Shown in pieces: positions 5,682 through 61,338 of a stretch of 64,000 bases of DNA. The stretch spans positions 657 through 64,656 of the forward strand of contig CATGLK010000009.1 in the NCBI GenBank assembly GCA_949538735.1, written 5' to 3'. The DNA comes from an uncultured Clostridia bacterium (GTDB lineage: Bacteria; Bacillota; Clostridia; TANB77; CAG-508). Both the position numbers and the translations under genes were made by a program. Position 1 is the first letter of the stretch; the number at the start of each line of letters is the position of its first letter. Under the pieces are notes generated by a model, which worked only from the letters and a program-made list of their open reading frames with translations, was not told the DNA's origin and ran no database searches.

Positions 5682-6412
5682 TTGTGTATAATTTTTTCTT
5701 TTTTTATCTATTTTTTTCTAATTTATTCTCTTTTTTTCTATTTTTTACTATTTTTTTCGTATTTTTTATTATTTTTTAAATATAAAATTATATTAATTAA
5801 AAATTAAATCGGCTTATTTTTGATTTTCGCGCTTCGTTTTTTTTATTATTTTTATTTTTTTATATTATTTTCTAATTTATTCTAATTTTTTCTAATTTTT
5901 TTAATAATTATTATTTAATTAATTTATTTTTTATAATATTTTTTATTTAATTATTTTATTTTCATACATTTAATTTATTAATGTAATAATTATAAAAAAT
6001 ATAATAAATAAAATAACCAAAATACCTTTTACCCAAAAATCAAAATCTCTTTTTTTCTATTTTTTTCGATTTTATTCTAATTTATTCTAATTTTTTCATA
6101 ATTATTTAATTAATTATTTTTATTATTTTTTAATAAAGTTATCCACAGTTTCAAAAATCGCCAAAATCTAATTTATTCTATTTTATTCTTTTTTTTTCGA
6201 ATTTATTCTATTTTTTTCATTACAATATTTTTCCACATTCAATATTTATTATCCACAATTAATTTACAATTTGTGGATAATTTTTAATTTTTTCAAACTT
6301 TTTTTTAGGACAGGCCAAAAAAGTTTCACTCGCGGACGTTTTGGGCCTGTCCCAAAAAATCCATTTTAAAAATTTGAAAGGTAGAATTTATTTCTACCTT
6401 TCCCCTATTTTT
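5682..6412. other. Gene-free, AT-rich 730-bp recF-dnaN gap. It carries three perfect DnaA boxes (TTATCCACA at 6139-6147 and 6249-6257; TGTGGATAA at 6272-6280) and degenerate TTTTTTCTAATTTATTCT-type repeats. Candidate extra oriC/DUE segment.
   Basis: Boxes and repeats read directly. No ORF with a plausible product. A family A palindrome lies at 6308-6353. Confidence 0.55.
6308..6353. repeat. Family A palindromic element (GGACAGGCCAAAAAAGTTTCACTCGCGGACGTTTTGGGCCTGTCCC). About a 13-bp stem with one bulge and an 18-nt loop.
   Basis: Related copies at 37743-37875, 38781-38838 and 61292-61338. A compensatory GGCC/GGCC to GGTC/GACC change occurs in the 61292 copy. Confidence 0.7.
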
Positions 6413-7531
6413 TTATTCTTCTTTTAATCTGATTGGTAAAATCATATAAGTATAATCATTATTTTCTGTTGATTTTACTAAACAAGGTGAAATGCTTGAA
6501 CCAAATTCTATATAAACTTCTTCATCATCAATTGCTTTTAAACTATCCAAGAAATACTTTGGATTAAATCCTGCTTCCAAATTTTTTCCTTCAGTTGAAA
6601 CATATAATTCTTCTTTTGCATCTCCTGTTTGATTTGTACAAGAAATTACAACTTTACCTATATCAACTTGTACTTTTACAGGATATTTTTTTTCTTTTTC
6701 TACACTTGATGCTGATATCAAGCTAATTCTTTCAAAACTATTTTGTATACTATTTTTATTTACTTTAATTCTTGTCTCCCAATTATTTGGTATAACATTT
6801 TTATAATTTAAAAACTCACCATCTAAAATTCTTGTTACAATTTTGCAATTATCCATTTCGAATAATGCTTGATTTTTAGAAACTCCTATTTTTATTGGTT
6901 CAAAAGAATCTGATATTATTTTATTTACTTCATTCAATGTTTTTCCTGGTATTACTGCATTAAAATTATTTGTTTGTTTATTTAAATAAATACTTCTTAG
7001 TGCTAATCTAAATCCATCAACAGCAACTAAATTTAATTTATTATTTTCGATTTCGAATAAGCAACCTGTAAAAATTGGTCTACTTTCTTCTGAGCTTACT
7101 GCAAAAATTGTTTTTCTAATCATATTTTTTAAAACACTTTGATCTATTTCAATAGAATTTTCAACTTCTATTTTTGGAAGTTCTGGAAATTCATCTGGAT
7201 TCATTGTTGCTAATTTGTATAATGAACCTTCACATTCAATTTCTAATAAATTTTTGTCATTTATAGAAATATGAATTTCTGTATCTGGTAATTTTCTAAT
7301 GATTTCACTAAACATTATAGCATTAACAACTGTACTTCCTTGTTCTTTTACTTCACATTCCATTATATATTCAATACCTATTTCTAAATCATAGGTTGTT
7401 AATTTTATTTCATTGTCATTAGTTTGAATTAATATTCCTTCTAATATTGGCATTGTTGTCTTAGAAGCAACGCCTTTAACTACGGAATTGATAGCTTTAA
7501 TGATTTTATCTTTATAGCAAACGATTTTCAT
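6413..7531 (-). CDS. dnaN: DNA polymerase III beta sliding clamp
   Basis: 372 aa, three-domain clamp architecture, position immediately downstream of dnaA. Confidence 0.95.
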   Translation of the reverse strand: MKIVCYKDKIIKAINSVVKGVASKTTMPILEGILIQTNDNEIKLTTYDLEIGIEYIMECEVKEQGSTVVNAIMFSEIIRKLPDTEIHISINDKNLLEIECEGSLYKLATMNPDEFPELPKIEVENSIEIDQSVLKNMIRKTIFAVSSEESRPIFTGCLFEIENNKLNLVAVDGFRLALRSIYLNKQTNNFNAVIPGKTLNEVNKIISDSFEPIKIGVSKNQALFEMDNCKIVTRILDGEFLNYKNVIPNNWETRIKVNKNSIQNSFERISLISASSVEKEKKYPVKVQVDIGKVVISCTNQTGDAKEELYVSTEGKNLEAGFNPKYFLDSLKAIDDEEVYIEFGSSISPCLVKSTENNDYTYMILPIRLKEE

Positions 7532-7853
7532 TTTGCTTCCTCCTTTATAATAATATAATATTTTTTAGTAGTAGTAGTAATAGGTGCTGTGGAAACTGTG
7601 GAAAACTATGTGGAAACATACAACCCCTAACAAAAATGATGTTTATAACTCAGTGGATAACTCAAGTAACAATCCACAGGTTTCAACATGCCATGTGTAA
7701 AACTTGAGATATACACAGTTTATCAACAGGTTATTAACACCCCCCTGTGGATAACGAATGCATTGCTTCCGTAGGAACAGAAACAATTACATTTTTCGAA
7801 CAATCATTTTTACAAACACAAATTTCAAAAAAAACTTGAAGTCGTTTTTGCTC
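7532..7853. promoter_or_regulatory. dnaA-dnaN intergenic oriC segment with a DnaA-box cluster (TGTGGAAAC/TGTGGAAAA x3 at 7588-7617, aGTGGATAA 7652-7660, ATCCACA 7672-7678, perfect TGTGGATAA 7746-7754).
   Basis: Box sequences read directly. Typical Firmicute bipartite-origin position. Confidence 0.8.
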
Positions 7854-9206
7854 TTATTGTTTTCCATCTATGATGATGTTTTTCACACTATCCACAATTA
7901 GCTTAGTATTATTTTTTTCTTTCACTTCTTTTTCAATTTTTTTACATCCATGCATAACAGTTGAATGATCTCTTCCCCCAAAGTCCACTCCTATCTGTGG
8001 ATAAGACATATTTGCAATTTCTCTACAAAGGTACATTGCAATTTGTCTTGGAAAAGCGATATCATTTGACCTTTTATTTCCTGCTAAATCTTCTTTGCTA
8101 ATACTGAAATATTTTGCAACAGTTTCTTTTATAAAGTCACAAGATATTACCTTTTCATTCTCATATTTAAATTCATTAATAATATTTTCAGCCAATTCAA
8201 TAGTAATTGGACTATGTGTTAATGAAGCTCTAGCAACAATTTTATTAAATACACCTTCAAGTTCTCTTATGTTTGAATCAATCTTATTAGCAATATTTGA
8301 AAGTATAAAATCTTCAATGATTATATTTTCATCTTGAGCTTTTTTTCTTAAAATTGCTAAACGAGTTTCATAATCTGGGCAAGAAATATCAGCTAAAAGC
8401 CCCCATTCAAATCTAGATTTTAATCTGTCTTCTAAAAATTGAATATCTCTAGGTGGTTTATCACTAGATAGTATAATTTGCTTACCTTCTTCGTATAAAG
8501 CATTAAATGTGTGGAAAAATTCCTCTTGAACTCTTTCTTTTCCAGCAATAAATTGAATATCATCTATCAATAAAACATCGATATTTCTATATTTATTTCT
8601 AAAAAATTCATTTTTATTATCTTTTATTGCATTAATTAATTGGTTTGTAAATTTTTCAGAAGTAACATATAAAACATTTGCATTTCTGTTGTTTTCTAGA
8701 ATTCTATTTCCAATTGCATGCATTAAGTGAGTTTTCCCCAAACCTACGCCTCCGTAAAGGAAAAGCGGATTATAGGAATTTGAAGGTTCATTTCCAACGG
8801 CTAAAGCAGCAGCATGTGCAAATCTATTGTTATTACCGACAACGAAGGTTTCAAAAGTATATTTTGGGTTCAAAGTAGATTTGTTAGATTCGATTTCTGC
8901 TGAAGAAATATTTGAATCATTTGTTATTACTTCGCTTTCTACGGCATTATTTTCTTTTGAAAGATCGACAACAGAGAAAGTCCATTCTTTGTTAGTAATA
9001 AAACGTAAAGTGTTAAAAACAAGACTTCTATATTTGTTCTCGATAAAATCTTGTTGAAATTCAGAATTAGCTGTAAAAACTATGTGATTACCTTCAATGC
9101 TTCGAATATCTAATGGCAAAATCCATGTTTCATATGATATTTGAGTTAATTCTGGCTTTAAGGCTTCTTTAATTTTTGCAATTAATTCTTCTTTTTCGAT
9201 AGCCAT
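7854..9206 (-). CDS. dnaA: Chromosomal replication initiator DnaA
   Basis: 450 aa, AAA+ Walker A (GGVGLGKTHL), box VII, and a C-terminal DNA-binding helix-turn-helix. Confidence 0.95.
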   Translation of the reverse strand: MAIEKEELIAKIKEALKPELTQISYETWILPLDIRSIEGNHIVFTANSEFQQDFIENKYRSLVFNTLRFITNKEWTFSVVDLSKENNAVESEVITNDSNISSAEIESNKSTLNPKYTFETFVVGNNNRFAHAAALAVGNEPSNSYNPLFLYGGVGLGKTHLMHAIGNRILENNRNANVLYVTSEKFTNQLINAIKDNKNEFFRNKYRNIDVLLIDDIQFIAGKERVQEEFFHTFNALYEEGKQIILSSDKPPRDIQFLEDRLKSRFEWGLLADISCPDYETRLAILRKKAQDENIIIEDFILSNIANKIDSNIRELEGVFNKIVARASLTHSPITIELAENIINEFKYENEKVISCDFIKETVAKYFSISKEDLAGNKRSNDIAFPRQIAMYLCREIANMSYPQIGVDFGGRDHSTVMHGCKKIEKEVKEKNNTKLIVDSVKNIIIDGKQ

Positions 9207-9609
9207 TCATATCATCCTTTCTAAAAATAAGTTATCCACAAAGTTATCCACAACTGTTGATAACTTTGTAATAGTTTTGTAAAAAAGAAAAAACTTTATA
9301 CGAACAAAAATTTAAGTATTACCAAGAAAAAGCTTAATTATTTTTTACTTTCACATAATAACAAATTTATACACAATAAGTCAATAAAATTGTGGAAAAA
9401 AATTTTTTTCTGTGGATAATTTTGAAAAAAACTGTGGAAAACTTAATAAATGTTACAATCATATTACAAAACAGTAAAAAAAATTTCCAAAAATTACTTG
9501 ACATATATAGGTTTTTTGGAGTATAATCGATATACTTGTTATTTTGTAAAAAAATAATTTCCAAACAAAATGGAATTTTATAAATAAAATCAATAGGAGG
9601 TGCCAAAGA
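9207..9609. promoter_or_regulatory. dnaA upstream oriC segment with DnaA boxes (TTATCCACA at 9232-9240 and 9244-9252; TGTGGAAAA 9391-9399; TGTGGATAA 9411-9419; TGTGGAAAA 9433-9441) and the rpmH promoter region.
   Basis: Boxes read directly. Confidence 0.8.
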
Positions 9610-13782: not shown

Positions 13783-13806
13783 CTTTTTCGACAAAATTCG
13801 ACAAAT
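13783..13806 (+). repeat. Direct repeat CTTTTTCGACAAAATTCGACAAAT. The same TTCGACAA x2 motif occurs at 1973-1993 and, inverted, at 47834-47854.
   Basis: Read directly. Confidence 0.6.
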
Positions 13807-14002: not shown

Positions 14003-14052
14003 TGTCCCCATTGGCAATAAATTGCCAAAAAGGTCCGTCCCCGATGGCAATA
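14003..14052. repeat. Family C element (TTGGCAATAAATTGCCAAAAAGGTCCGTCCCC) in the mnmG 5' leader.
   Basis: Shares the GGGACGGACCTTTTTGGCAA module with 47757-47800, 55411-55439 and 61242-61268. Confidence 0.65.
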
Positions 14053-22043: not shown

Positions 22044-22403
22044 ATGAAAAGAAATATGTTAAAATTAATGTGTGCAATACTACTTATTATAATACTTAGC
22101 GTTTTATATATAACGCCATATTGTTATGCGGGACAAGGAGATATTAACACAAATAACTATAAACCGACTAAAGAAGGTGGAACAAGAGCAGCAGAAATAG
22201 GTAACAAAATAATAGGAATATTACAACAAATAGGAAGTATTGTTTCGGTAATTGCATTAGTAGGAATGGGAATAAAATATATGGTTGGTAGTACTGAAGA
22301 AAAAGCAGAATATAAAAAGACTATGATGCCGTATTTTATAGGTGCGATATTAGTATTTGCTACCACAAATGTACTAGCTATGATAAGCAATATATTTGAA
22401 TAG
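22044..22403 (+). CDS. VirB2/TrbC-like T4SS pilin-family protein, paralog 1
   Basis: Signal peptide (cleavage about CYA/G), variable region, then a conserved two-helix hairpin IGSIVSVIALVGMGIKYMVGSTEEKAEYKKTMMPYFIGAILVFA. Promoter TTGAAA-17-TATAAT at 21996-22024. Confidence 0.65.
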   Translation: MKRNMLKLMCAILLIIILSVLYITPYCYAGQGDINTNNYKPTKEGGTRAAEIGNKIIGILQQIGSIVSVIALVGMGIKYMVGSTEEKAEYKKTMMPYFIGAILVFATTNVLAMISNIFE

Positions 22404-22415
22404 GAGGTAGAACGA

Positions 22416-22757
22416 ATGAAAGCAATACAAAAAATTGTGATAATATTAACAATAATAGTTATGATATTAATAATTTTCAGTAGCAGTATATATGCATTTG
22501 AAGTTGGAGATTTTAGTGGAACTCCAATTAATAATAAGGAATTGGATAATGCAGGAAATAAAATAATAACAGTAATTAGTACAATTGGATCTGTTGTTTC
22601 TGTAATTGTGCTAGTTGTGATAGGAATTAAATATATGATAGGAAGTGTAGAAGAAAAAGCAGAGTATAAAAGAACACTAATGCCATATGTAATTGGTGCA
22701 GGACTAGTGTTTGCAGCATCAGCAATAGCAGGAGCAATTTATAATATGGTAAAATAA
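22416..22757 (+). CDS. VirB2/TrbC-like pilin-family protein, paralog 2
   Basis: Same architecture (IGSVVSVIVLVVIGIKYMIGSVEEKAEYKRTLMPYVIGAGLVFAA). Lies 12 nt after paralog 1 and is probably co-transcribed. Confidence 0.65.
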   Translation: MKAIQKIVIILTIIVMILIIFSSSIYAFEVGDFSGTPINNKELDNAGNKIITVISTIGSVVSVIVLVVIGIKYMIGSVEEKAEYKRTLMPYVIGAGLVFAASAIAGAIYNMVK

Positions 22758-22871
22758 TAATATTATAGCGATGAAAAAGTTGAAAAATGTAAAAAAGTAT
22801 GCTATAATATATTGTGTAAAATGTTTTTAAATGTTAAAATATAATTAAAAATAGAAAGGGAGGAATAGAAG

Positions 22872-23237
22872 ATGAAAAAATTATCAAAAATATTAGCAAT
22901 AGTTATGATTGTAACAATGTTATGTATGACAGTTGCAACTATATCAATGGCAGCAACAGCAGCACCAGATCCAAAACAATACACAGGTACAGATACAGAT
23001 GTTGAAGGAATTACTAATATAGGAAATCAAGTTATTACTATTGTAAGTACAGTAGGATCAATAGCTTCTGTTATTGTATTGGTTATATTAGGTCTTAAAT
23101 ATATGATGGGTAGTGCAGAAGAAAAAGCAGAATACAAGAAAACATTAATGCCATACATAATTGGTGCGGCACTAGTATTTGCAGCATCAGCAATCTCAGG
23201 AATAATCTTCAGTTTTACACAAGGTTTAGGTGGATAA
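22872..23237 (+). CDS. VirB2/TrbC-like pilin-family protein, paralog 3
   Basis: Same C-terminal module (VGSIASVIVLVILGLKYMMGSAEEKAEYKKTLMPYIIGAALVFAA). Own promoter TTGAAA-17-TATAAT at 22781-22809. Confidence 0.65.
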   Translation: MKKLSKILAIVMIVTMLCMTVATISMAATAAPDPKQYTGTDTDVEGITNIGNQVITIVSTVGSIASVIVLVILGLKYMMGSAEEKAEYKKTLMPYIIGAALVFAASAISGIIFSFTQGLGG

Positions 23238-23356
23238 TATCCTACAAAGGACAAGCTCATAGGGGCTTGTTTTTTTATGAAATAAACAGCATAAAATGTT
23301 GAAAAAAGTAGACTAATAAGTTATAATATAATAAAGGAGAAAATGGAGGAAAAAAT

Positions 23357-23749
23357 ATGAAGAAAATAATAAGTTGCTTAATTATAATAGTTATATTAGT
23401 GATTGGTTTTTTACCATGTTGTTATGCTGCAAATGGCGCGGATGATGCAATTAAAGATGGTGATAAATTTCTAGATGTAGGAAGACAGCATATAGAAGAT
23501 AAGGGTTCACCAATAAGCGATGAAGGGTTAAAGAACCTTTCTAACTCTATGAGTAATATGTTACTCTTAATAGGGACAATAGTAGCAGTTGCAGTAGGAG
23601 TTGTATTAGGAATTAAATTCATGTTAGCAAGTGTAGAAGAAAAAGCAAAAGTAAAAGAAATGTTAACAATATATATTATAGGATGTGTAGTTTTATTTGG
23701 GGCTTTCACGATTTGGAAGATTTGTGTTGAATTATTTAGTAGTATTTAG
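23357..23749 (+). CDS. VirB2/TrbC-like pilin-family protein, paralog 4 (most divergent)
   Basis: IGTIVAVAVGVVLGIKFMLASVEEKAKVKEMLTIYIIGCVVLFGA. Own promoter ATGTTGAAAAAAG..TTATAAT at 23287-23317. Confidence 0.6.
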   Translation: MKKIISCLIIIVILVIGFLPCCYAANGADDAIKDGDKFLDVGRQHIEDKGSPISDEGLKNLSNSMSNMLLLIGTIVAVAVGVVLGIKFMLASVEEKAKVKEMLTIYIIGCVVLFGAFTIWKICVELFSSI

Positions 23750-23861: not shown

Positions 23862-24218
23862 ATGGGAACATATAACATACCAAGAAACCTAAAAGGAGAA
23901 GGAAGAATTTTATATGTATTTTCAACAAAAGCATTGGCATATACAGGAGCAGGTGCTGTAATAGGAGGATTATTTTATTTTATACTCAATGCAATTGGAC
24001 TTACATTTTTAGGATTAATGTTTGTAGTTATTTTTGGATTTATAGGATTTTCAATAGCAACATTCAAAATTCCGAAAATAAAAACTATAAAATTTTTAAA
24101 GGACATTAGCGGAGAGAACATTGATGAGATAATAAAGCGATATATAAAATTCAAATCAAAAAAGAAGAATAGATATGCATTATATAAAACAAAGGAGGAA
24201 GTAATAGATGGAGAGTAA
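23862..24218 (+). CDS. PrgI-family (VirB3-like) small two-TM T4SS protein
   Basis: N-terminus MGTYNIPRNLKGEGRILYVFSTKALAY matches the remembered PrgI-family pattern (YxIPxxL...KI...LTxRQ). Hydrophobic hairpin. Extended -10 TGTTATAAT at 23843-23851. Confidence 0.55.
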   Translation: MGTYNIPRNLKGEGRILYVFSTKALAYTGAGAVIGGLFYFILNAIGLTFLGLMFVVIFGFIGFSIATFKIPKIKTIKFLKDISGENIDEIIKRYIKFKSKKKNRYALYKTKEEVIDGE

Positions 24219-25440
24219 TGAAATTACAAATTTATTAACAATAATTTTAGCAGTTTTTTTGTGTGTGTTAGTTATTCTTATAATAGTATATGTAATATTA
24301 CTTGCTAAAAGCAAAAAAGGAAATTCAAATAAACAAAAATCAAGTAATGAAATAATTATTAATGATAATAAAAAGGCAAAGAAAGAAAAAGTAAAAATAG
24401 ATACAACAGAAGATATAAGTAAATTTATGGAATTCGAAAAAGTGCAAGATAATATGATAATCCAGAAAGAAAGATCTAAGTACATAATGGTAGTAGAATG
24501 CCAAGGTGTAAATTATGACTTAATGTCAGAAGCAGAAAAAATAGGAGTAGAAGAGGGATTTCTACAATTTTTAAATACATTAAGGCATCCTGTTCAAATA
24601 TATGTCCAAACAAGAACTGTAAATTTAGAAGAAAGTATAAGTAGATATAGAAGTAAATTTTCCCAAATAGAAAGTGAAATGTATAAAAAAAGGCAAGAAT
24701 ATATGACAATAAAAGATGACCTCAACTATACAAAAGAGCAGAGACAAAAAGCCCTATACGCATTTACCAAAGCTAGAAACTTATATGAATATGGAAGAGA
24801 CATAATTGAAGATACCGAAAAAATGAGCTTAAATAAGAATATTTTAAATAAAAAGTATTATATTATTATTCCATATTATGCAGAAGATTTAAAAGACGGA
24901 AACTTTGAAATAGAAGAAATAAGAGGTCATGCATTTACAGAATTGTATACAAAATCACAAGCAATTATAAGAACACTAACTGCATGTGGTGTGAATGGAA
25001 AAATATTAAATACTAAAGAATTAATAGAGTTATTATATGTAGCTTATAATAGAGACCATGAAGAAGTATTTAACATTGATAAAATTATTGGAGCAGGATA
25101 TGATAAATTATATTCTATGGCAGAAGATGTATATGCAAAGAAAATAAGAGCAATAGATAAACAAATAGAAGAAGAAGCTATAAATAAAGCAAAAGAGAAT
25201 TTAAATATTGCAAAAACGGCGTTAGAACAGGAAGCTATAAGAAAAGATAAAGAAAGAGAAAGCATAATTGATGAATTAGCAAAAATGATATTGGAAGAAA
25301 ATAGAGAATATGTAGATGAGAAATTAATAGACACTGCAATAGAGCAAATTGACGGGGAAAAGAAATCAAAGAAAACTAAAGAAAAGGAGGTAAATCAAGA
25401 TGGCAAGAGAAAAACAACTAGAAGAACAACAAAACAATAA
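24208..25440 (+). CDS. Membrane-anchored protein carrying a TrsE-type VirB4 N-terminal domain plus a long coiled coil (the N-terminal half of a split VirB4)
   Basis: N-terminal TM (LLTIILAVFLCVLVILIIVYVILL). The motif YIMVVECQGVNYDLMSEAEKIGVEEGFLQFLNTLRHPVQIYVQTRTVNL parallels IKILKIIPINYNLKSDLEKEAIL..FDIQIFIQSSKIDL of the edge VirB4 gene. Lys/Glu-rich C-terminal coiled coil. Overlaps the next ORF by 41 nt. Confidence 0.5.
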   Translation: MESNEITNLLTIILAVFLCVLVILIIVYVILLAKSKKGNSNKQKSSNEIIINDNKKAKKEKVKIDTTEDISKFMEFEKVQDNMIIQKERSKYIMVVECQGVNYDLMSEAEKIGVEEGFLQFLNTLRHPVQIYVQTRTVNLEESISRYRSKFSQIESEMYKKRQEYMTIKDDLNYTKEQRQKALYAFTKARNLYEYGRDIIEDTEKMSLNKNILNKKYYIIIPYYAEDLKDGNFEIEEIRGHAFTELYTKSQAIIRTLTACGVNGKILNTKELIELLYVAYNRDHEEVFNIDKIIGAGYDKLYSMAEDVYAKKIRAIDKQIEEEAINKAKENLNIAKTALEQEAIRKDKERESIIDELAKMILEENREYVDEKLIDTAIEQIDGEKKSKKTKEKEVNQDGKRKTTRRTTKQ

Positions 25441-27373
25441 AGAAGAAAAAATTACATTGTTAAAAAATACCTCAATAAAAGAAATGATTGCACCTTCAGG
25501 AGTAGATGCTTCAAGTTTGGATCATTTAGAAATAGTATCAAATATTAAAAGATATGCTAGAAGCTTTGTAGTTTCAACATTGCCAAGAATGTGTAGTTTT
25601 CCAGAATTATTTAGAGATATGTACATGTTTGGAGATATAAACACATCAATATATATAAATCCAATTGCAGAATCAAGATCACAAAATGAGTTAAATAGAG
25701 TAATAAATGAATTAGAGACAGAAAGAATAGTAGCACAAGACAAAGGAAATATAAACAGAGAAAGTACTCTAGTTCAAAAACGTATAGAAGCAGAGCAGTT
25801 AAGAGATGAGATAGCAGCAGGGTTTAATAAATTATTTGAAGCATCAGTAATATCAACTCTATATGCCTATAACATGGAGGACTTAGATAAATTAACAAAA
25901 CTATTAGAAACCGAAATGTCAAAAAACTTATTAGATATAAAAAGTGCTTGGGCAATGCAAGAGGAAGCATATCAAAGCAATGTACCATTAATGCAAGATA
26001 AAGTAAAGAAAATACATACTTTTGATAGAAGATCAATGGGAACAGTATTTCCTTTTACAACTTCTGATGTAGGACATCCATCAGGAGTACCAATAGGATT
26101 TAATAAACAAACAGGAGTGCCAATATTATTTGATAATTTCCATCCATCATTAACAAATTATAATATGGTTATATTTGCAAAATCTGGTGCTGGAAAATCA
26201 GTAACAATGAAAACATTGATATCTAGGTCATCTGTATTAATGGGGATAGAAAGTTTGGCATTAGATGCTGAAGGAGAGTATTCAATAGTTACAGAAAGTC
26301 TAGGTGGGATAAATGTTGTATTAAGTCCAAACTCAAAAACTATTATAAATGTTTTTGATATTGAACCAGAGAGAATAAAAGATGAAATTACAGGAAAAGA
26401 AAGAATTGTTCTAAATGTTGAAAATAAAATAGAAGACGTAACACAAGCTTTGTTAACAATGGCAAGAGGAAGTACGAGAAGTGATGAAGTAAATGAATTA
26501 ACAAAACAAATTATAGCAGAGTCGGTTGCGGAAGAATATGCGGCATTAGGAATAACTAATGATCCTCAAAGCTTATTCCGTGAAAGTGGAACATTTGACA
26601 GAAACGATAAACTATACAGGGAAAAGAAAGAAATGCCTACTATAGGTAGTTGGTATAGAAGAATACAAAAGAAAGCTCAAGATAATGATAATAAAGATTA
26701 TAGTTTTCATTATAGTTATTTATTAAAAGTTATGAAACAATACATAAGAGAGTATGACGGACAAATGGCCTACTTTGATGGACAATCAACTTTTGAATTA
26801 TTAGACGGAGCACCATTTATAAATTTAGATATATCACAATTGGAAGAAAGATTTGCAAGACCTTTGGCACAGCAAATATTACTTTCTTGGATATGGGAAA
26901 AATACGTAAAGAAAAATAGTGAAGATAGAACAAAAGCTAAAAAGAAAAGAGTGTTGGTTGATGAGGCATGGATGCTATTACCATACCCAGAAGCTGTGGA
27001 TTTCTTAAACACAATGGCAAGACGTGCTAGAAAGAGAAATGTATCGCTTGCTATTATATCTCAAAGATTTCAAGATTTTTATGAGAAACCTGAAGCACAA
27101 GCAGTATTAACATCTTCTGATACAAAGTTATTCTTAGCACAAGATAAATCAGAAATACAGTACTTAAAAGAAGTGTTTAAACTAAGTGAAGGTGAAGCTG
27201 GTTTCTTAGTAACTTGTTTAAAAGGAGAAGGACTATTAAAGGTAGGAGCAGATTCGGCAATTATTCAAGTAAGACCAACACAAAAGGAATTTGAGTTTGT
27301 GGAAACAAACTTAAATAAAATGGTAGAAATGAGAAGAAAAAATGAGGAGAATGAAGTGTATGAGGACAATTAA
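25400..27373 (+). CDS. VirB4/ConE-family T4SS ATPase (middle domain plus ATPase)
   Basis: Strong RBS AAGGAGG at 25384-25390. Middle-domain motifs (MIAPSGVD...YPR-like, TVFPFTTSDV), Walker A IFAKSGAGKSV, LDAEGEY, Walker B-like VLVDEAWMLL. Confidence 0.85.
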   Translation: MAREKQLEEQQNNKEEKITLLKNTSIKEMIAPSGVDASSLDHLEIVSNIKRYARSFVVSTLPRMCSFPELFRDMYMFGDINTSIYINPIAESRSQNELNRVINELETERIVAQDKGNINRESTLVQKRIEAEQLRDEIAAGFNKLFEASVISTLYAYNMEDLDKLTKLLETEMSKNLLDIKSAWAMQEEAYQSNVPLMQDKVKKIHTFDRRSMGTVFPFTTSDVGHPSGVPIGFNKQTGVPILFDNFHPSLTNYNMVIFAKSGAGKSVTMKTLISRSSVLMGIESLALDAEGEYSIVTESLGGINVVLSPNSKTIINVFDIEPERIKDEITGKERIVLNVENKIEDVTQALLTMARGSTRSDEVNELTKQIIAESVAEEYAALGITNDPQSLFRESGTFDRNDKLYREKKEMPTIGSWYRRIQKKAQDNDNKDYSFHYSYLLKVMKQYIREYDGQMAYFDGQSTFELLDGAPFINLDISQLEERFARPLAQQILLSWIWEKYVKKNSEDRTKAKKKRVLVDEAWMLLPYPEAVDFLNTMARRARKRNVSLAIISQRFQDFYEKPEAQAVLTSSDTKLFLAQDKSEIQYLKEVFKLSEGEAGFLVTCLKGEGLLKVGADSAIIQVRPTQKEFEFVETNLNKMVEMRRKNEENEVYEDN

Positions 27374-29981
27374 AAGTAAGTGGCAAAAGTTGGTAATTGC
27401 ATTTTTGGTAGTTATAATGTTGTTTAATGTAGTGTTCCCTCCATACTCTAGAGCTGATTTTGGGGGAACCTTATTTGAACCAATAGCAGAATTTATATGT
27501 GGAGTAGGAGATGCAATAATGAATATCCTTCAAACAACGATGTTACCTGGGGCACCTAAAGCTGTTGAAACAAGAACGGTAGGAGATTTATTATCTGATG
27601 AATTGGTAGAGTCAGATAATTGGATAGACAAAGCGAAAGGATGGTTTATGAAGTTTGAAGGAGCGGTAGACAACATACCAGTTTTGGGAGATATTTATAG
27701 AGGTGGATCTAGTTTTTTGAAAGCATTTAATCCAATAGGGATGGTAAAGGGAACAGTTAAGAATGTAAAAGATATGGGACCGTTGGCACTTTTAGGAGGA
27801 GGAATTCTAGGAGGTTTTAGAGAAGCGAAGGATAATTATGAAGGGTATTATGAATTATATAGAGAAACAACAGTAGTACCATTAATGTTATATGGACCAG
27901 CAGCAATATTTTCTAATTTGGTACCAGCACTAGATGTCAATTTTATAAATCCACATGTAGGATATAAAGGAGGATCTATAACATTTAATCTAGAACATGG
28001 AAAATGGGAAAGAGGAGCGAAGACAGAAATAACATCAGTTTACACAGAAGATACTAATGCAGATGAATATGTAGGAAATATTGCACTGAAATTACAAGCT
28101 ACTATTGCTAAATGGTATTTAGCCTTAAGAAATATTGCAGTTGTAATGATGTTATCTGTATTGGTATACGTAGGAATAAGGATTATATTATCAAGCACAG
28201 CAGGCGAAACGGCTAAGTATAAAACACTATTAAAAGATTGGCTTGTTGGGATGTGCTTATTATTTACATTACATTATATGATGGCTTTTATATTAAAAGG
28301 AGCAGAGATGGTAACAGATTTATTTTCATCATCTGAAATGATGATAATTGATGAAAAAGATGATGGAGTAATGATAGATCCGTTTTTGACATCTACTAGA
28401 CTACTTGCAGTAGGTATGGATGATAATATAGACGATCAAACTCTAAATGAGATGAAATTTGATTTAGGTGATATGTTTGGGTATACAGTGATATATTGTC
28501 TATTAGTAGTTTACACTATAATATTTACATGGAAATATTTAAAGAGATTCGTGTATTTAGCATTTTTAACTATGATATCTCCATTAGTAGCATTTACATA
28601 TCCTATAGATAAAATGAAAGATGGAAGTGCGCAAGCTTTTAATATGTGGATGAAAGAATATACATATAATGTACTAATTCAACCATTACACTTATTATTA
28701 TATGCTATACTTATAAGTGCAGCTCAAGATTTTGCAGAAACAAATTTAATTTATACTGTTGTAGTGTTAGGATTCTTGTTGGAAGCAGAGAAAATATTCA
28801 AATCACTATTTGGATTTAATAAAGCTAGTGGAGGAGAATTATCAGCAGCAGTTACAGGAGGAGCATTATTTGGAACAGCGGCAGGATTTACAAAAAATAT
28901 GTTCAAAAAACTACCTGGAGATAAAAATAATAAAAAAGATTCAGGTGGGTCTGATGGAACTGGAAGCAATAGTAAGATACGTATGGACAGAAAAGCGGAT
29001 TCAGATAAAAAAGGAATAAATTTAGGAACAGCATTTGGTGGTGGAATATCTAATAGTAGTTCGTCAACAGGTGGTGCTACTATGTTAAGTAGTGGAACAT
29101 CAGGAAATAGTTTGTCTAAAAATAATAATTTAAGTAATAGTTCATTAGGAAATACTGTTGCAGGAAATGGTAGTATGCCAGTGATTTTAGGAAGTGGTGC
29201 AGCAAAAGGAAAATATTCAGGAAAATTAGGAAAAACAACAGGAAAATTAGGTAAAAGCATTAATAATTCTAAATTCGGACAATCAAATATTGGAAGAAAA
29301 ACAATTAGAGGTGTTAAAGGAGTAGGAAGAGTTGCAGGTACAGGTGCTAAAAAGGTATTTACTACGAAAAATGGTATTAGATTAGCTAAAGGAGCAGCTT
29401 CAGTAGCAGGAGCAGCAGCATTAGGAACAATGGGATTGGCAGCAGGACTAGCATCAGACAATCCAGAAGATGCAATCAAATATGCTACTGTTGGTGCAGG
29501 AGCAGGTGCACTTATAGGTAGTAAAACAGTGGGAGCTGTAGGAGCAGGCGGTAATGCTATAAAAAATGCTACAACAGGAATAAGAGATGAATTTGAGAAA
29601 GGTGCATACGGAAAAAAAGGTGCTCAAGAAAGAGCTAATAAGAGACTTGATGAAAAATGGAAGAAATCTTCAGAGACCGTACAGCATTATAAAGATGAGT
29701 ACGGAGATAATTGGGAAGATGCAATGGATAATGCAATGGAACTAAGAAAACGTGGAATAGTAGATCAAAAAGAGTTAGATATGGCACAAAAAATGATGGA
29801 CAGAAATCAAGGACAAATGAATTTAGACCAAACAGCAGCAATTATGAAAGCGTCGAGAGGATTAACATCTCAAAGTTTAAAAGAAAATAGAAAAGACATA
29901 TTAGAGAGTATAATGGATGAAGTACAAGACTCTAATACAGCTAATAAGATTATAAACGAAATGCGACAAAATTTAGAATAG
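27342..29981 (+). CDS. VirB6/ConG/Orf15-like polytopic T4SS channel protein with a Gly/Ser/Asn-rich C-terminal low-complexity region
   Basis: 879 aa. N-terminal signal/TM, a large extracytoplasmic domain, at least 5 TM helices (aa about 260-480), then a G/S/N/K-rich stretch (aa about 500-750). Confidence 0.55.
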   Translation: MRRMKCMRTIKSKWQKLVIAFLVVIMLFNVVFPPYSRADFGGTLFEPIAEFICGVGDAIMNILQTTMLPGAPKAVETRTVGDLLSDELVESDNWIDKAKGWFMKFEGAVDNIPVLGDIYRGGSSFLKAFNPIGMVKGTVKNVKDMGPLALLGGGILGGFREAKDNYEGYYELYRETTVVPLMLYGPAAIFSNLVPALDVNFINPHVGYKGGSITFNLEHGKWERGAKTEITSVYTEDTNADEYVGNIALKLQATIAKWYLALRNIAVVMMLSVLVYVGIRIILSSTAGETAKYKTLLKDWLVGMCLLFTLHYMMAFILKGAEMVTDLFSSSEMMIIDEKDDGVMIDPFLTSTRLLAVGMDDNIDDQTLNEMKFDLGDMFGYTVIYCLLVVYTIIFTWKYLKRFVYLAFLTMISPLVAFTYPIDKMKDGSAQAFNMWMKEYTYNVLIQPLHLLLYAILISAAQDFAETNLIYTVVVLGFLLEAEKIFKSLFGFNKASGGELSAAVTGGALFGTAAGFTKNMFKKLPGDKNNKKDSGGSDGTGSNSKIRMDRKADSDKKGINLGTAFGGGISNSSSSTGGATMLSSGTSGNSLSKNNNLSNSSLGNTVAGNGSMPVILGSGAAKGKYSGKLGKTTGKLGKSINNSKFGQSNIGRKTIRGVKGVGRVAGTGAKKVFTTKNGIRLAKGAASVAGAAALGTMGLAAGLASDNPEDAIKYATVGAGAGALIGSKTVGAVGAGGNAIKNATTGIRDEFEKGAYGKKGAQERANKRLDEKWKKSSETVQHYKDEYGDNWEDAMDNAMELRKRGIVDQKELDMAQKMMDRNQGQMNLDQTAAIMKASRGLTSQSLKENRKDILESIMDEVQDSNTANKIINEMRQNLE

Positions 29982-29995
29982 GAATATGATTTAAT

Positions 29996-30929: not shown

Positions 30930-30954
30930 AAAGAGAGAAAAGAGGTGATATCTA

Positions 30955-44309: not shown

Positions 44310-45053
44310 ATGGAAAAAATATTAAAAGAAAATGAAAGAATAGACGACTTAGAATATAAAGGATTAAAAATAATACAAAACACAGAAGGGTTTTGTTTTG
44401 GAATAGACAGTGTACTATTATCTGACTTTGCAAAAGAAATAAAAGGAGGAAGCAACGTTTTAGATTTAGGAACAGGCACAGGAATTATTCCAGTTTTATT
44501 ATGTGGAAAAACAAAATTAAAAAAAATAATAGGAATAGAAATTCAAGAAGAAGTTGCAGAAATGGCAAGTAGAACAATTAAATTAAATAATTTAGAAAAT
44601 AGATTTGAGATATTAAATGAAAATATTTTAAATTTGAAAAATATTTATCAGAACCAAACTTTTGACGCAATAGTTACAAATCCACCATATAAAAAAATAG
44701 ATACAGGAATAAAAAACGAAAGTGAAAAGAAAATAATTTCGAGACACGAAACGACAGCAACCCTAGAAGATTTTATAAAAATAGCAAGAGATTTATTAAA
44801 AGATAAAGGTGCTTTTTATATGGTACATCGACCAGAAAGATTGGTAGATATTTTAAGTTTAATGAGACAATATAAAATAGAACCAAAAGTTTTAAAATTT
44901 GTATCTTCAAATTTTAATAAAGAACCAAATTTAATTTTAATTAAAGGAATAAAAAATGCAAAACCATTTTTAAAAATAGAAAAAAATTTAAATATTTATG
45001 ATTTAAATGGAAATTATACAGATGAAATATTAAAAATATATAATAAAATATAA
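44310..45053 (+). CDS. SAM-dependent methyltransferase of the TrmN6/YfiC type (tRNA m6A37-like) with an NPPY motif
   Basis: VLDLGTGTGIIPV (motif I) and TNPPYKK (motif IV). Confidence 0.7.
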   Translation: MEKILKENERIDDLEYKGLKIIQNTEGFCFGIDSVLLSDFAKEIKGGSNVLDLGTGTGIIPVLLCGKTKLKKIIGIEIQEEVAEMASRTIKLNNLENRFEILNENILNLKNIYQNQTFDAIVTNPPYKKIDTGIKNESEKKIISRHETTATLEDFIKIARDLLKDKGAFYMVHRPERLVDILSLMRQYKIEPKVLKFVSSNFNKEPNLILIKGIKNAKPFLKIEKNLNIYDLNGNYTDEILKIYNKI

Positions 45054-45059
45054 ATAAAA

Positions 45060-45210
45060 AAATAAATATGAAAAAAATAGAAAAAAATAGAATAAATTAG
45101 AATAAAATTGAAAAAAATAGGAAAACGAAGATTTTGCAAACCAAGAAATGAAAAAAATTCAAAAAAATAGAATAAATTAGAATAAAATCGAAAAAATTAG
45201 AAAAAGGGAG
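45060..45210. repeat. AT-rich repeat block (AAAAAATAGAATAAATTAGAATAAAATCGAAAAAA x2), the reverse complement of repeats in the recF-dnaN gap (6040-6228)
   Basis: AGAATAAATTAGAATAAAAT occurs twice here. Its reverse complement TTTTATTCTAATTTATTCT occurs at 6064-6090 and about 6178-6215. Confidence 0.65.
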
Positions 45211-45220
45211 ATTTTAAATA

Positions 45221-46045
45221 ATGGAAAATGAAAAAGGAAAATTATATATAGTAGCAACACCAATAGGAAATTTAGAAGACATTACACTAAGAGCAATAAA
45301 AATATTAAAAGAAGTGGATTTAATTGCGGCAGAAGATACAAGGCATACATTAAAATTATTAAATCATTTGGAAATATCAAAACCAATGATAAGCTACCAT
45401 AGACACAACGAAGAAATAAGATGTGACAATTTAATAAAAGAATTAGAGCAGGGAAAAAATATAGCAATAGTATCAGATGCAGGAACCCCAGGGATTTGTG
45501 ACCCAGGGGAAGAAATAATAAAAAAATGCATAGAAGAAAATATAACAATAGTTCCAATACCAGGAGCATGCGCAATGATAAATGCATTAATATGTTCAGG
45601 AATAAATACAAAAGAATTTAATTTTTTAGGATTTTTACCATTAAATAAAAAATTAAGAAAAGAAAAATTAGAAGAAATAAAAAAATCAAATAAAACAATA
45701 ATTATATATGAAGCACCACATAAACTAAAAACAACATTAAATGATTTAAAAGAAATTCTAGAAAAAAGAAAAATCGTTTTAGCAAGAGAACTTACAAAAA
45801 TACATGAAGAATTTATTAGGGAAGATATAGAAAAATTAATAGAAAAATCAGAAGAATTAAAAGGAGAAATGGTAATAATTATTGAAGGCAGTACGCAAAA
45901 GGAAGAAAATGAATTAAATAATTTAAGTTTAGAAGAACATTTTGAATTTTATAAAAATCAAGGATTTGATAAAAAAGAAATAATTAAAAAAATTGCAAAA
46001 GATAGAAATGTAAATAAAAATGAAATTTATAAAAAATTTATTTAA
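45221..46045 (+). CDS. rsmI: 16S rRNA (cytidine1402-2'-O)-methyltransferase RsmI
   Basis: Tetrapyrrole-methylase fold motifs LYIVATPIGNLEDIT and AAEDTRHT. Confidence 0.85.
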   Translation: MENEKGKLYIVATPIGNLEDITLRAIKILKEVDLIAAEDTRHTLKLLNHLEISKPMISYHRHNEEIRCDNLIKELEQGKNIAIVSDAGTPGICDPGEEIIKKCIEENITIVPIPGACAMINALICSGINTKEFNFLGFLPLNKKLRKEKLEEIKKSNKTIIIYEAPHKLKTTLNDLKEILEKRKIVLARELTKIHEEFIREDIEKLIEKSEELKGEMVIIIEGSTQKEENELNNLSLEEHFEFYKNQGFDKKEIIKKIAKDRNVNKNEIYKKFI

Positions 46046-47228: not shown

Positions 47229-47756
47229 ATGAAAATTATAAACTTTGCATCTAATCTAGCAATGCCAATGATTATTCTGCTAATAGTAGCATATGGGCTA
47301 AAAGAAAAAAATAAAGTTTTCGACACATTTCTAGTTGGAGCAAAAGAAGGAATAGAAACAACATTCAAAATATTCCCAACACTAATTGGACTATTTGTAG
47401 CAATAGGAGCATTAAGGTCATCAGGAATATTAGAATATATAACCCACATTGCAAGTCCAATACTAAACCTAATAAACTTTCCAGGAGAATTAATGCCACT
47501 TGCATTACTAAGACCAGTATCTGGTAGCGGATCTATGGCAATAGCAACAGACATAATGAAAAACTGTGGAGTAGACACTATGCTTGGAATAATGGCATCA
47601 ACAATTATGGGGTCAACAGAAACAACATTATATACAATTGCCATATATACCAGTTGCATAAAAGTAAAGAAAACAAGGGGAATTTTAATAGCAGCATTAA
47701 CAGCAGACATTGTTGGAATGCTTGTAAGCGTAATAGTTTGCAGATTATTGCCATAA
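47229..47756 (+). CDS. spmB: Spore maturation protein B
   Basis: Polytopic membrane protein, synteny with spmA. Confidence 0.7.
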   Translation: MKIINFASNLAMPMIILLIVAYGLKEKNKVFDTFLVGAKEGIETTFKIFPTLIGLFVAIGALRSSGILEYITHIASPILNLINFPGELMPLALLRPVSGSGSMAIATDIMKNCGVDTMLGIMASTIMGSTETTLYTIAIYTSCIKVKKTRGILIAALTADIVGMLVSVIVCRLLP

Positions 47757-47800
47757 GGGACGGACCTTTTTGGCAATTTTTTGCCAAAAAGGTCCGTCCC
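47757..47800. repeat. Perfect 44-nt family C palindrome (GGGACGGACCTTTTTGGCAA TTTT TTGCCAAAAAGGTCCGTCCC), a candidate bidirectional terminator or protein-binding site
   Basis: 20-bp perfect arms read directly, immediately after the spmB stop. Confidence 0.75.
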
Positions 47801-47829
47801 TGTTGGCAATCTTTTGTCACTGGGGATAT

Positions 47830-47889
47830 TCCTTTGTCGAATTTTGTCGAAAAGTTTTTCTTGACAAATTATAAAATGCAATTTATAAT
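47830..47889 (+). promoter_or_regulatory. Consensus sigma-A promoter (-35 TTGACA 47861-47866, 17-nt spacer, -10 TATAAT 47884-47889) preceded by the TTGTCGAATTTTGTCGAAAAG direct-repeat operator (47834-47854)
   Basis: Hexamers read directly. The module is the reverse complement of 1961-1993. Confidence 0.6.
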
Positions 47890-48019: not shown

Positions 48020-48080
48020 TGATTTATTAAAATTGCATAAATCATTTAAAATATAATATTCAATTTAAGTTTTTAATTTT

Positions 48081-48152
48081 GTAGAGATAAAAATATTTTT
48101 TAAAATCTTTAAAACTAGATGCCCCTATTTTAAAAGTTTTAGTAATCTCTAC
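48081..48152. terminator. Long imperfect inverted repeat (arms GTAGAGAT / ATCTCTAC) between the small peptide gene and the rlmH 3' end. Candidate bidirectional terminator.
   Basis: Read directly. Confidence 0.4.
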
Positions 48153-48168
48153 AAAACCAAATATAAAT

Positions 48169-48648: not shown

Positions 48649-48673
48649 TTTTTACTCCTTAATAGTTAAAAGA

Positions 48674-48730
48674 GATGTGTTCCAAAATGGACAAAATGTC
48701 CAAAAGGAAACGTCCCCAAATGTCCCAATG
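48674..48730. repeat. Family B repeat copy 3
   Basis: GATGTGTTCCAAAATGGACAAAATGTCCAAAAGGAAACGTCCCCAAATGTCCCAATG. Confidence 0.7.
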
Positions 48731-48733
48731 TTC

Positions 48734-55405: not shown

Positions 55406-55410
55406 AAAAA

Positions 55411-55447
55411 TTGCCAAAAGGGACGGACCTTTTTGGCAATTTTTTTA
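55411..55447. terminator. Intrinsic terminator built from a family C element (GCCAAAAGGGACGGACCTTTTTGGC followed by a T-run)
   Basis: Stem-loop plus TTTTTTT immediately after the pgcA stop. Also abuts the ttcA stop on the opposite strand. Confidence 0.7.
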
Positions 55448-57575: not shown

Positions 57576-57591
57576 TTCAAGGAGAAAATAA

Positions 57592-58534: not shown

Positions 58535-58562
58535 ATTTTTTATAGTATAGGGATGTGATAAA

Positions 58563-60179: not shown

Positions 60180-60251
60180 TTAGTAAATTGCCTAAATGTG
60201 CGATTTGAATTATGCAAAAATACAATTTAATTTATAAAGGAGGAAAATAAA

Positions 60252-60596: not shown

Positions 60597-60628
60597 TAAA
60601 TAGCTAGTTAGTTGCGGAGGAAGTAGAA

Positions 60629-61234
60629 ATGTCATTATATTCACCATCAATAGAAAAATTAATAGAAAGCTTTGAAAGACTACCAAGCATAGGACACAAA
60701 ACAGCAGCAAGACTAGCATTTCATATGCTAAATGCATCAGAAGAAGAAACAAACGAATTTATTTCTTCAATAGTAAATGCAAAAAAGAACCTAAAATATT
60801 GTAGCAAATGCTATAATATCTCAGACACAGACCCATGTATTATCTGCGGAAACCCTAAAAGAGACCAAAGCATAATATGTGTAGTAGAAGATGTAAGAGA
60901 TGTTATCGCAATGGAAAAAACACACGAATTTAAAGGTGTATATCACGTATTGCATGGTTCAATATCTCCGATGAATGGAGTAGGACCAGACGATATAAAA
61001 ATAAAAGAATTGCTTTCAAGACTAATGGACCAAGAAAATCCAGTAAAAGAAGTAATACTTGCAACAAACCCTAGGGTTGAAGGCGAAGCAACAGCTATGT
61101 ATTTGTCTAAATTGATAAAACCATTGGGAGTATCTGTAACTAGAATAGCTCATGGAATTCCTGTTGGTGGGGATTTAGAGTATACAGATGAAATTACTTT
61201 GACTAAAGCATTAGAAGGAAGAAGAGAAATTTAA
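60629..61234 (+). CDS. recR: Recombination protein RecR
   Basis: HhH, C4 zinc finger (CSKC...CIIC), Toprim. Confidence 0.9.
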
Positions 61235-61241
61235 AAAACAT

Positions 61242-61338
61242 GCCAAAGAGGACGGACCTTTTTGGCGAATTTTTTTATTTGTGGATTTTTTGGGACAGGT
61301 CAAAAAAATTTCGCTCGCAGACTTTTTTGACCTGTCCC
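61242..61338. terminator. Family C hairpin plus T-run terminator (61242-61276) followed by a family A palindrome with a perfect 16-bp stem (61292-61338)
   Basis: GCCAAAGAGGACGGACCTTTTTGGC + GAATTTTTTT, then GGGACAGGTCAAAAAAATTTCGCTCGCAGACTTTTTTGACCTGTCCC. Confidence 0.7.

Follow-up and report, generated by a model that had tools for sequence, protein, structure and literature searches.

The stretch of DNA analysed here, referred to as the window, comprises 64,000 nucleotides of contig CATGLK010000009.1 from an uncultured Clostridia bacterium and is the replication-origin region of a genome of low GC content (28.8% over the window, in line with the background of about 28% given in a preliminary description made from the sequence alone). 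The minus strand carries gyrB, recF, dnaN and dnaA, the plus strand carries rnpA-yidC-jag-mnmE-mnmG, and the sign of the GC skew switches at ~8–10 kb of the window. Exact copies of window proteins were found only in metagenome assemblies and in metagenome-assembled genomes (MAGs) labelled uncultured Clostridium or Clostridia. Dispersed through the region are short palindromic elements with GGGAC/GTCCC cores, which the preliminary description had sorted into families A, B and C. These elements, and a gene for a repetitive extragenic palindrome (REP)-associated tyrosine transposase (RAYT) that they flank in the same clade, are the subject of this report.

All three families were found at the positions reported for them. 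Together they make up 11 loci in nine intergenic regions, with ~22 cores, which is far above chance; the families described earlier stand, and the count of at least 12 copies in 64 kb is corrected to these figures. The family A 20-mer TTTTGGGACAGRYCAAAAAA gave 11 matches in the window with up to three mismatches, against 0.09 expected. For the family C 20-mer GGGACGGACCTTTTTGGCAA and a family B 29-mer, five and three matches were found, respectively, with none expected for either. More than half of the GGGAC/GTCCC pentamers of the window (22 of 38) lie inside the elements. The cores were GGGAC overall, as described, except that the copies at 6308 and 61250 start with AGGAC.

Family A occurs downstream of dnaN as an inverted doublet at 6299..6361 (no strand assigned), which resembles the hairpins of inverted REP pairs (REPINs). 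It is flanked by a T-run and an A-run and has a 10-bp GC stem (AGGACAGGCC/GGCCTGTCCC) enclosing a 27-nt interior, with predicted folding energies of −24.6/−26.3 kcal/mol (z −4.7/−5.2). The other inverted doublet of this family, at 61284..61346 (no strand assigned), has the stem GGGACAGGTC/GACCTGTCCC and folds at −33.4 kcal/mol (z −7.7). On the plus strand, a tandem array at 37737..37878 consists of three 36-bp units (TTTTGGGACAGGCCAAAAAAGTTTCAYTCRCGGACG) and a closing palindrome, TTTTGGGACTGTCCCAAAAA, and sits between divergent dnaJ-like and patatin-like genes; Tandem Repeats Finder delimited it as 37743–37874, with a period of 36, 3.7 copies and a score of 194. The family A copy previously placed at 38781 was also found, and its extent was revised to 1.7 units in reverse orientation at 38775..38840 (minus strand), overlapping the last codons of the patatin-like open reading frame (ORF). 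Together with the array, these units form a 62-nt inverted repeat that is 92% complementary.

The three family B elements lie on the minus strand. The one at 2598..2661, which begins 3 nt past the gyrB stop codon, reads TGGGACAgttgGGGACGTTTCtttttGGACAttttGTCCAatttGGGACACATC on that (core) strand; a second, at 38851..38914, follows directly on the stop codon of the gene for a 1449-aa acyl-CoA dehydratase activase (predicted fold −28.7 kcal/mol, z −5.5); and the third, at 48668..48731, lies between the stop codon of a metallo-β-lactamase-fold hydrolase gene and the rlmH Shine–Dalgarno sequence. Family C is represented by a partial plus a full module (GTCCCCaTTGGCAAtaaaTTGCCAaaaaGGTCCGTCCCcgaTGGCAAT) at 14003..14051 on the minus strand, ending a few nucleotides ahead of the mnmG Shine–Dalgarno sequence, and by an inverted doublet of period 33 at 47744..47816 (no strand assigned) between convergent genes. 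The perfect 44-nt palindrome noted at 47757 was confirmed in this doublet (47757–47800, within ATTGCCA...TGGCAAT arms; −52.3 kcal/mol, z = −12.4). On the plus strand, a single family C module at 55406..55444 fills the entire 39-nt spacer between convergent pgcA-like and tilS-like genes (−23.9 kcal/mol, z −7.5), and a degenerate single module (AGGACGGACC) at 61241..61267 follows recR and is itself followed by seven T residues. The elements had been described as intergenic and mostly at gene ends; they are indeed intergenic or overlap gene ends, but they are not confined to 3′ ends, because the 37743 array lies between divergent genes and the 14003 copy lies in a 5′ leader.

The anatomy of the elements was drawn from ~200 further copies in related genomes. 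The small modules of families A, B and C (unit size 31–47 nt) belong to a single superfamily, with a common core and different arms, the layout being an arm, a T/A homopolymer run, an asymmetric core GGGAC(A/G)G.., a complementary run and the matching arm. Left arm, core and right arm are, respectively, AAAACTTTTT, GGGACAGGCC and AAAAAAGTTTT in family A; TGTCCA-ttg, GGGACGTTTCC and TTTTGGACA, then TTTTGTCCATTTTGGGACACATC, in family B; and (A)TTGCCA-nnn, GGGACGGACC and TTTTTGGCAA(T) in family C. Two more families were recognized in the genus outside the window, namely D (GATGTTTTTG, GGGACGGAGC and AAAAAAACATC) and E (GGTGTTTTTG, GGGACAGACC and TTAAAAACACC). Modules occur singly, as inverted doublets forming a long hairpin, or in tandem arrays, whose units measure 36 bp in A and 33 bp in C; arrays were seen at window position 37737 and at loci L018, L039 and L168. 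Within family B, GTCC/GGAC words recur ~10–11 bp apart, and the junction of a family A with a following family B module was found again at unrelated loci (L005, L006 and L042).

Predicted folding was better than that of shuffled sequences for the A doublets, the C modules and the C doublet (z −4.7 to −12.4) and was weaker for two family B copies and the mnmG copy. Core flanks were complementary at 11 or more of 14 positions in 18.7% of cases, as against 0.5% after shuffling. The covariation check suggested in the preliminary description gave a divided result. In family C the outer arm covaries (AATTGCC/GGCAATT, ATCTGCC/GGCAGAT and TCCTGCC/GGCAGGA), with arm pair 8–36 being U-A in 26 copies and C-G in 12; 37 cells were changed on both sides compared with 27.3 ± 3.6 in shuffles (0 of 500 shuffles as high), counts that are inflated by subfamilies inherited through copying. 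For family A, covariation in the doublet stem was not above shuffles among 13 aligned doublets. The GGTC/GACC change in the stem at 61292 had been read as compensatory and as a sign of selection on the hairpin. The stem is real, and an intermediate (GGTC/GGCC) is present in the sister strain L138, but the argument for selection is weak, because inverted duplication of one variant unit yields the same pattern automatically and because the aligned A doublets do not covary beyond shuffles.

Exact family A 20-mers were found on many contigs of seven MAGs (CAOPES, CASSLW, CANBES, CANSPP, CANEMG, CATLUC and JAAWKZ), with 7–14 matches each in the first four, which are the best represented, and chance singletons elsewhere. 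With copies spread across many contigs in at least seven related MAGs, the repeats are not a local duplication confined to this region, the alternative that had been raised at the outset. The seven MAGs and the window constitute a genus-level clade of uncultured low-GC gut Clostridia, with orthologues sharing ~90–97% amino-acid identity; an earlier impression that the element-bearing MAGs were distant (52% identity) proved to be a paralogue artefact. Most of the 299 GGGAC sites in 374 kb of DNA from the genus belong to these families. Among relatives with an activase 75–90% identical, 80 loci (1.1 Mb) were almost free of elements, and a few such relatives hold related modules with other arms (GTTGTC...GACAAC and GTGACTTG...CAAGTCAC). 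Searches of phage, plasmid and viral-contig collections gave no matches to families A, B or C, and Rfam, at gathering as well as permissive thresholds, returned no family and only generic hairpin (microRNA) noise. The repeats are thus dispersed, lineage-specific and intergenic.

Close strains differ in their complement of elements. Compared with CANBES (locus L037; 93–97% amino-acid identity), the window has 3.7 units in the A array versus one module, and at the 3′ end of the patatin gene it has ~95 bp of A units in reverse orientation, bounded by AAAAGATAT/AAAAGATGT, that L037 lacks. RecR is identical between the window and CAOPES; downstream of it, the window, L138 and L140 carry the C module and A doublet, whereas CAOPES (L139) carries an E doublet between the same flanks. 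The C doublet at 47744..47816 is 33 bp shorter in three sister strains (L141, L142 and L144), and equivalent spacers in CANSPP, CAOPES and CANBES hold different families. In one orthologous comparison, a family D core amounted to exactly 10 nt between arms pre-existing in the coding sequence of sister genomes. The B element at 48668..48731 was missing from most outgroup relatives, with a diverged copy in L078.

A transposase recognizing GGGAC-type ends had been proposed in the preliminary description as something to look for, and a RAYT-family Y1 gene flanked by inverted A units was found in the clade. The lead came from a tblastn search with E. coli RayT, which gave one weak match between two inverted A copies in L028. 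ORF 4974–5735 of this locus encodes a 253-aa HUH/Y1 protein that, like the genus proteins P0001 and P0127, contains the HUH motif NHAHFLI and the Y---NP Tyr motif YIHFNPV. It scored 47 bits with Pfam Y1_Tnp (cutoff 23) and 75.5 bits (E 3.8e-21) with NCBIfam NF047646, the REP-associated tyrosine transposase model, versus 20.6 bits for IS200. A profile of 40 homologues had 4ER8 (TnpA-REP) as its best PDB match (E 7e-5), and the AlphaFold model (pLDDT 88, pTM 0.79) also found 4ER8 as its best Foldseek match (E 1.6e-6), ahead of the IS608 and ISDra2 transposases. An additional helical C-terminal domain, confident in the prediction, gave only sub-threshold matches to HTH_24, FeoC, Mga and DeoR, together with a winged-helix protein, S25 (E 0.016). 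The HUH and Tyr motifs form invariant columns across homologues down to ~47% identity.

The gene order ABC-F–RAYT–tex was seen in every contig carrying either genus protein. Throughout the contigs read, RAYT is a single, syntenic locus; no second RAYT locus was detected in ~1.7 Mb of sampled partial DNA, and all-versus-all clustering of 359 ORFs from genus loci revealed no multi-copy transposase. Assemblies often break ~100 bp past the gene, at the repeat. The gene is flanked by inverted repeats, with GGGAC on the coding strand upstream and GTCCC downstream, in L028 (where the repeats are family A units), L152–L161 and L168–L171, and likewise around homologues of 63, 58 and 51% identity. For the window's own lineage, contig ERZ14212335 NODE_18 carries two forward A units, RAYT and two reversed A units, with three-unit arrays nearby, and also holds window-like recR and tilS regions. 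The three homologues adjoin ABC-F and/or tex, the 63% homologue having been observed only beside tex, on short contigs, and the 58% homologue following ABC-F and being followed by a CorA gene. Their flanking modules retain the GGGAC core, with the arms GCATTTT/AAAATGC, GGTGTTTTT/AAAAACACC and CATGATTTT/AAAATCATG. The core thus stays constant alongside this enzyme lineage, with arms that drift in pairs and keep their complementarity. Physical association of the repeats with the RAYT-fold gene is thus conserved. In CANSPP-type genomes, a small Cro/C1-type helix-turn-helix (HTH) gene (79–89 aa) was observed immediately upstream of RAYT (L028 5802–6041, and L152–L161); it is absent in the window's lineage (L168).

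Across the genus, copies lie in convergent, co-directional and divergent spacers, with convergent ones somewhat enriched and no orientation rule, and ordinary housekeeping genes are bracketed by them. Family B copies were found between the terminator of a T-box and the ribosome-binding site of thrS, and between the 5′ end of a tRNA and the −10 box preceding it, so copies are tolerated within transcripts. The dnaN gene has its own terminator-like hairpin ahead of the family A doublet. Family A itself is not a canonical terminator, because a T-run precedes and an A-run follows the hairpin on both strands. Terminator geometry was seen only in those family C modules whose sense strand reads GGGAC. 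The module at 55,406–55,444 has a T-run after the hairpin on both strands, the geometry of a bidirectional terminator, and is the only structure in its 39-nt spacer; that at 61,241–61,267 has intrinsic-terminator geometry and was listed as terminator-like. Both agree with the earlier statement that the C copies after pgcA and recR are shaped like intrinsic terminators, and, on this geometry, transcription probably ends at C modules that have a T-run after them. The suggestion that the mnmG-leader copy acts as an attenuator was not upheld, the copy having no terminator geometry and a weak fold (z = −1.8).

Several other assignments were tried and set aside. The elements showed no strand bias of the kind expected for CsrA GGA-loop sites, the GG-GC spacing of a putative sigma-54 promoter in TGGCAA-N6-TTGCC was one base short, and integron attC sites have their conserved parts at the foot of the hairpin, not at the apex as here. 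A reading of the 36-nt × 3.7 array as the antitoxin of a type III toxin–antitoxin system (ToxI-like) or as a spacer-less clustered regularly interspaced short palindromic repeat (CRISPR) array was dropped, given that its units are copies of the dispersed repeat, that L037 has no such array and that a patatin gene lies downstream. The patatin gene, flanked like the RAYT gene, was also considered as a mobilized cassette; this was dropped because relatives free of elements have the gene at the same locus and because most of the flanking units are missing from L037. Relatives differ in whether they have the patatin-like phospholipase gene (window 37937–38812) at this locus, between the dnaJ-like gene and the activase gene; its matches to anti-phage phospholipases and those of the cyclic-oligonucleotide-based anti-phage signalling (CBASS) type are weak and below cutoff.

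In published accounts of such systems, REPs are 20–40-nt extragenic palindromes, often in inverted pairs (REPINs) or mosaic clusters (bacterial interspersed mosaic elements, BIMEs); a REPtron is a single-copy RAYT flanked by its own REPs, and the foot of the hairpin in canonical REPs carries GT[AG]G (PMC6006769, PMC3116915, PMC5581495). Di Nocera et al. (2013) described RAYT-like genes between inverted repeats sharing GGGGWSAS, naming them TIRtrons or TIRYTs, and found some of these repeats as moderately abundant families of singles, dimers and groups (PMC3733652; PMC6006769); the families found in published surveys came from a few Proteobacteria and Acidobacteria. Quentin et al. (2018) placed TIRYTs in subclass 2.1, long proteins with a C-terminal HTH for which their searches found no REP-like repeats (PMC6006769), and Bertels et al. 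(2017) reported Group 1 RAYTs in Clostridia, weakly associated with frequent 16-mers (PMC5581495). TIRtrons/TIRYTs probably correspond to both subclass 2.1 and Group 1. The elements described here fit the TIRtron description. The Y1 protein, at 253 aa, is longer than E. coli RayT (165 aa) and has an extra C-terminal helical part with sub-threshold HTH matches; its gene lies between inverted repeats with a GGGGWSAS-type motif (GGGGACAG, GGGACAG or GGGGACGG), and these repeats are also scattered singly, as dimers and in groups. Next to RAYT the copies read GGGGACAG (L154, L156 and L158) or TGGGACAG (L168); by family, the motif is GGGGACAG in E, GGGGACAC or GGGACAC in B and, with one mismatch, GGGGACGG in C and D. 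Unlike known TIRtrons, the system has several arm-families on one core, 36-bp tandem arrays and a gene that is strictly syntenic across lineages.

Likeness to the canonical REP/BIME/REPIN-RAYT systems of Enterobacteria and Pseudomonas extends to short extragenic palindromes, inverted doublets and mosaic clusters, to a RAYT bracketed by its repeats and seen at one locus in the contigs read, to apparently vertical inheritance, and to lineage specificity and location in transcribed spacers; the protein's best structural match, 4ER8, is E. coli TnpA-REP bound to its REP hairpin. They differ in that the conserved GC-rich motif here occupies the centre or apex, between AT-rich arms, that the host is a Firmicute with 29% GC, and that the protein, ~15% identical to E. 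coli RayT, has a C-terminal domain in addition. Pneumococcal BOX elements, and also RUP and SPRITE, are likewise modular intergenic repeats of Firmicutes, near gene ends and with stable predicted RNA or DNA folding, and the tandem middle units of BOX vary in number between strains. Their sequences are unrelated to those found here, however; BOX has no associated transposase and RUP is a miniature inverted-repeat transposable element (MITE) of IS630-Spn1 with terminal inverted repeats (TIRs) and target-site duplications (TSDs), whereas here a RAYT gene is flanked by the repeats. The initial comparison with REP/BOX/RUP-type miniature repeats is supported by the RAYT gene flanked by inverted A units in the clade.

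Taken together, we consider it likely that the elements are REP/REPIN-like, non-autonomous hairpin repeats of a TIRtron/TIRYT-type RAYT system in this low-GC genus of uncultured gut Clostridia. If it behaves like E. coli TnpA-REP and IS200/IS605 TnpA, the enzyme would bind the folded single strand, recognize the conserved core, and cut and rejoin DNA, seeding new copies. Array length would be altered by replication slippage or by unequal recombination between units. Hairpins inserted in transcribed spacers would then act in RNA: C modules with a T-run probably terminate transcription, and other copies may stabilize 3′ ends or be merely tolerated in 5′ leaders. Several observations weigh against this interpretation. 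No transposition event was seen in the strain comparisons, and the action of the enzyme is argued from analogy; no convincing target-site duplication or clean empty site was found between the window and L037, in the recR spacers or at the C doublet. The only target-duplication candidate was a 9-bp direct repeat, AAAAGATNT, that microhomology deletion fits equally well, and the strain polymorphisms could be explained by slippage, unequal recombination or gene conversion without a transposase. The hairpin feet of every family lack the GTAG or GTGG expected of a GT[AG]G guide. The NCBIfam score of 75.5 is slightly below the curated cutoff of 80, and the RAYT gene lies outside the window, the contig of a near-identical strain providing the link to the window's genome. 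Beside RAYT, only family A was found (D/E-like modules in other lineages), B and C being connected through the shared core and one C-type core beside the 63% homologue. The terminator function of the C modules is itself read from geometry.

The same strain comparisons bear on a different explanation, which we regard as unlikely, namely that the repeats are relics or self-propagating sequences spread only by host slippage, unequal recombination and short-patch gene conversion, with RAYT inactive on them or domesticated. Every strain difference seen was a change in unit number, a block replacement or an indel with short direct repeats at its ends, and no target duplications were found; the 10-nt family D core between pre-existing arms is conversion-like; and the RAYT gene is syntenic and apparently vertically inherited. 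Retention of the HUH and Tyr motifs in homologues to ~47% identity speaks against this explanation, however, and the constant bracketing of RAYT by inverted conserved-core copies while the arms diverge is hard to account for without a functional interaction. That the modules are instead operators or nucleoid-organizing sites of a DNA-binding protein, the C-terminal helix-turn-helix part of the RAYT-like protein being one candidate, with hairpin potential incidental, is a very slim possibility. It would suit a conserved core with variable arms, the ~10–11-bp spacing of family B GTCC/GGAC words, the sub-threshold HTH matches of the RAYT-like C-terminal helical domain and the location of some copies just upstream of promoters, but arms that covary as base pairs are not required for double-stranded recognition, copies lie beside housekeeping genes that have no relation to each other, in all spacer types and in either orientation, and their presence differs between close strains, unlike that of a regulon.

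Still slimmer is the chance that these are ordinary intrinsic terminators, alike through the constraint of an AT-rich genome and with no mobility. Many copies do lie at gene 3′ ends, with enrichment in convergent spacers, and family C has a stem followed by a T-run, the 55,406–55,444 module being the sole structure of its convergent spacer. Yet identical sequences of 20–50 nt recur at dozens of sites, family A has its T-run before and its A-run after the hairpin on both strands, and copies are located between divergent genes (37743), in a T-box leader past its terminator and in a tRNA 5′ leader; dnaN, moreover, already has a terminator-like hairpin upstream of the A doublet, co-directional spacers show no orientation bias, and close relatives do without the elements. 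Least credible, and close to negligible, are classical MITEs of a DDE-type insertion sequence (with TIRs and TSDs, as for RUP with IS630-Spn1) or DNA uptake sequences. The inverted GGGAC...GTCCC ends are superficially TIR-like, and in Neisseria and Haemophilus uptake sequences that occur in pairs form terminators (PMC1852404), but there is no target-site duplication and no multi-copy transposase among the 359 ORFs, the units are merely 31–47 nt, and the associated gene encodes a Y1 HUH enzyme. Uptake sequences, in addition, are common inside genes, whereas the cores here are almost exclusively intergenic.

The origin region contains further features. DnaA-box clusters (TTATCCACA) lie at window 6135–6150, ~6,250–6,290 and 9,229–9,253, both upstream of dnaA and downstream of dnaN; with the change in GC skew they suggest a bipartite oriC. 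One cluster is abutted by the family A doublet at 6299–6361. A second, unrelated repeat family of ~80 bp, with A-tract words in 10-bp phase (ATGAAAAAAATAGAATAAATTAGAATAAAATCGAAAAAAATAGAAAAA...GAGATTTTG), occurs at 5690–6235 (minus strand, between dnaN and recF) and at 45040–45215 (plus strand, upstream of the gene at 45221–46045), with four copies upstream of recF and two upstream of the TP_methylase gene. Its orientation is constant relative to the downstream gene, a tiny ORF (MKKIEKNRIN*) opens each copy, and it may be curved DNA or an upstream promoter element. Tandem Spo0A-box-like words (TTTGTCGAA) at 47833–47889 (plus strand) directly precede a perfect TTGACA-17-TATAAT promoter; related copies were found at 1931–1993 (reverse complement) and 13787–13805, and the motif is kept at the same place in element-free relatives.

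Downstream of rlmH, at ~48068–48155 (minus strand), a candidate small RNA or cis-element takes the form of a conserved hairpin, GTAGAGA...GGGG...TCTCTAC-AAAATTAAAAAC. Covariation of its stem was seen in relatives (gtagggaaaat/ttttccctac and ctacagaagg/ccttctgtaag), and Rfam had no match to it. Genes resembling those of conjugation or type IV secretion lie on either side of the origin region (window 1–1921, 22044–23749 and 24208–37096). To the left of gyrB they encode TraC-like and VirB4/TraG-like ATPases; also among their products are four paralogous small proteins of 113–130 aa, and large proteins, one of which, at 1577 aa, has CHAP, lysozyme and M15 peptidase domains.

RAYT-linked repeats are a kind of system already known, and the Clostridia example is new. 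We suggest, tentatively, that it could be the first clear REPIN-RAYT-type system in Firmicutes, in which the TIRYT branch drives proliferating hairpin repeats and recognition lies in an invariant asymmetric apex motif (GGGGAC-R-G), leaving the arms free to covary; at least seven arm sets occur across lineages whose syntenic RAYT genes are 51–90% identical. If this is so, the large but little-understood TIRYT branch, for which surveys found few or no cognate repeats, would have proliferating ones, with a recognition logic unlike that of canonical REPs. Within this genome the elements account for nearly all GC-rich islands in spacers, and annotators should treat the hairpins, including the 36-bp array, as repeat DNA and not as CRISPR-like, toxin–antitoxin or riboswitch features. 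The elements, variable between strains, could be of use in typing these uncultured gut Clostridia. What deserves follow-up is the placing of the putative recognition motif at the apex of the hairpin while the arms covary freely, in a Firmicute lineage whose RAYT gene is syntenic: the clade offers a natural series with one syntenic gene, a fixed core and differing arms, which makes RAYT/TIRYT recognition testable outside Proteobacteria and bears on the birth and maintenance of such repeats.

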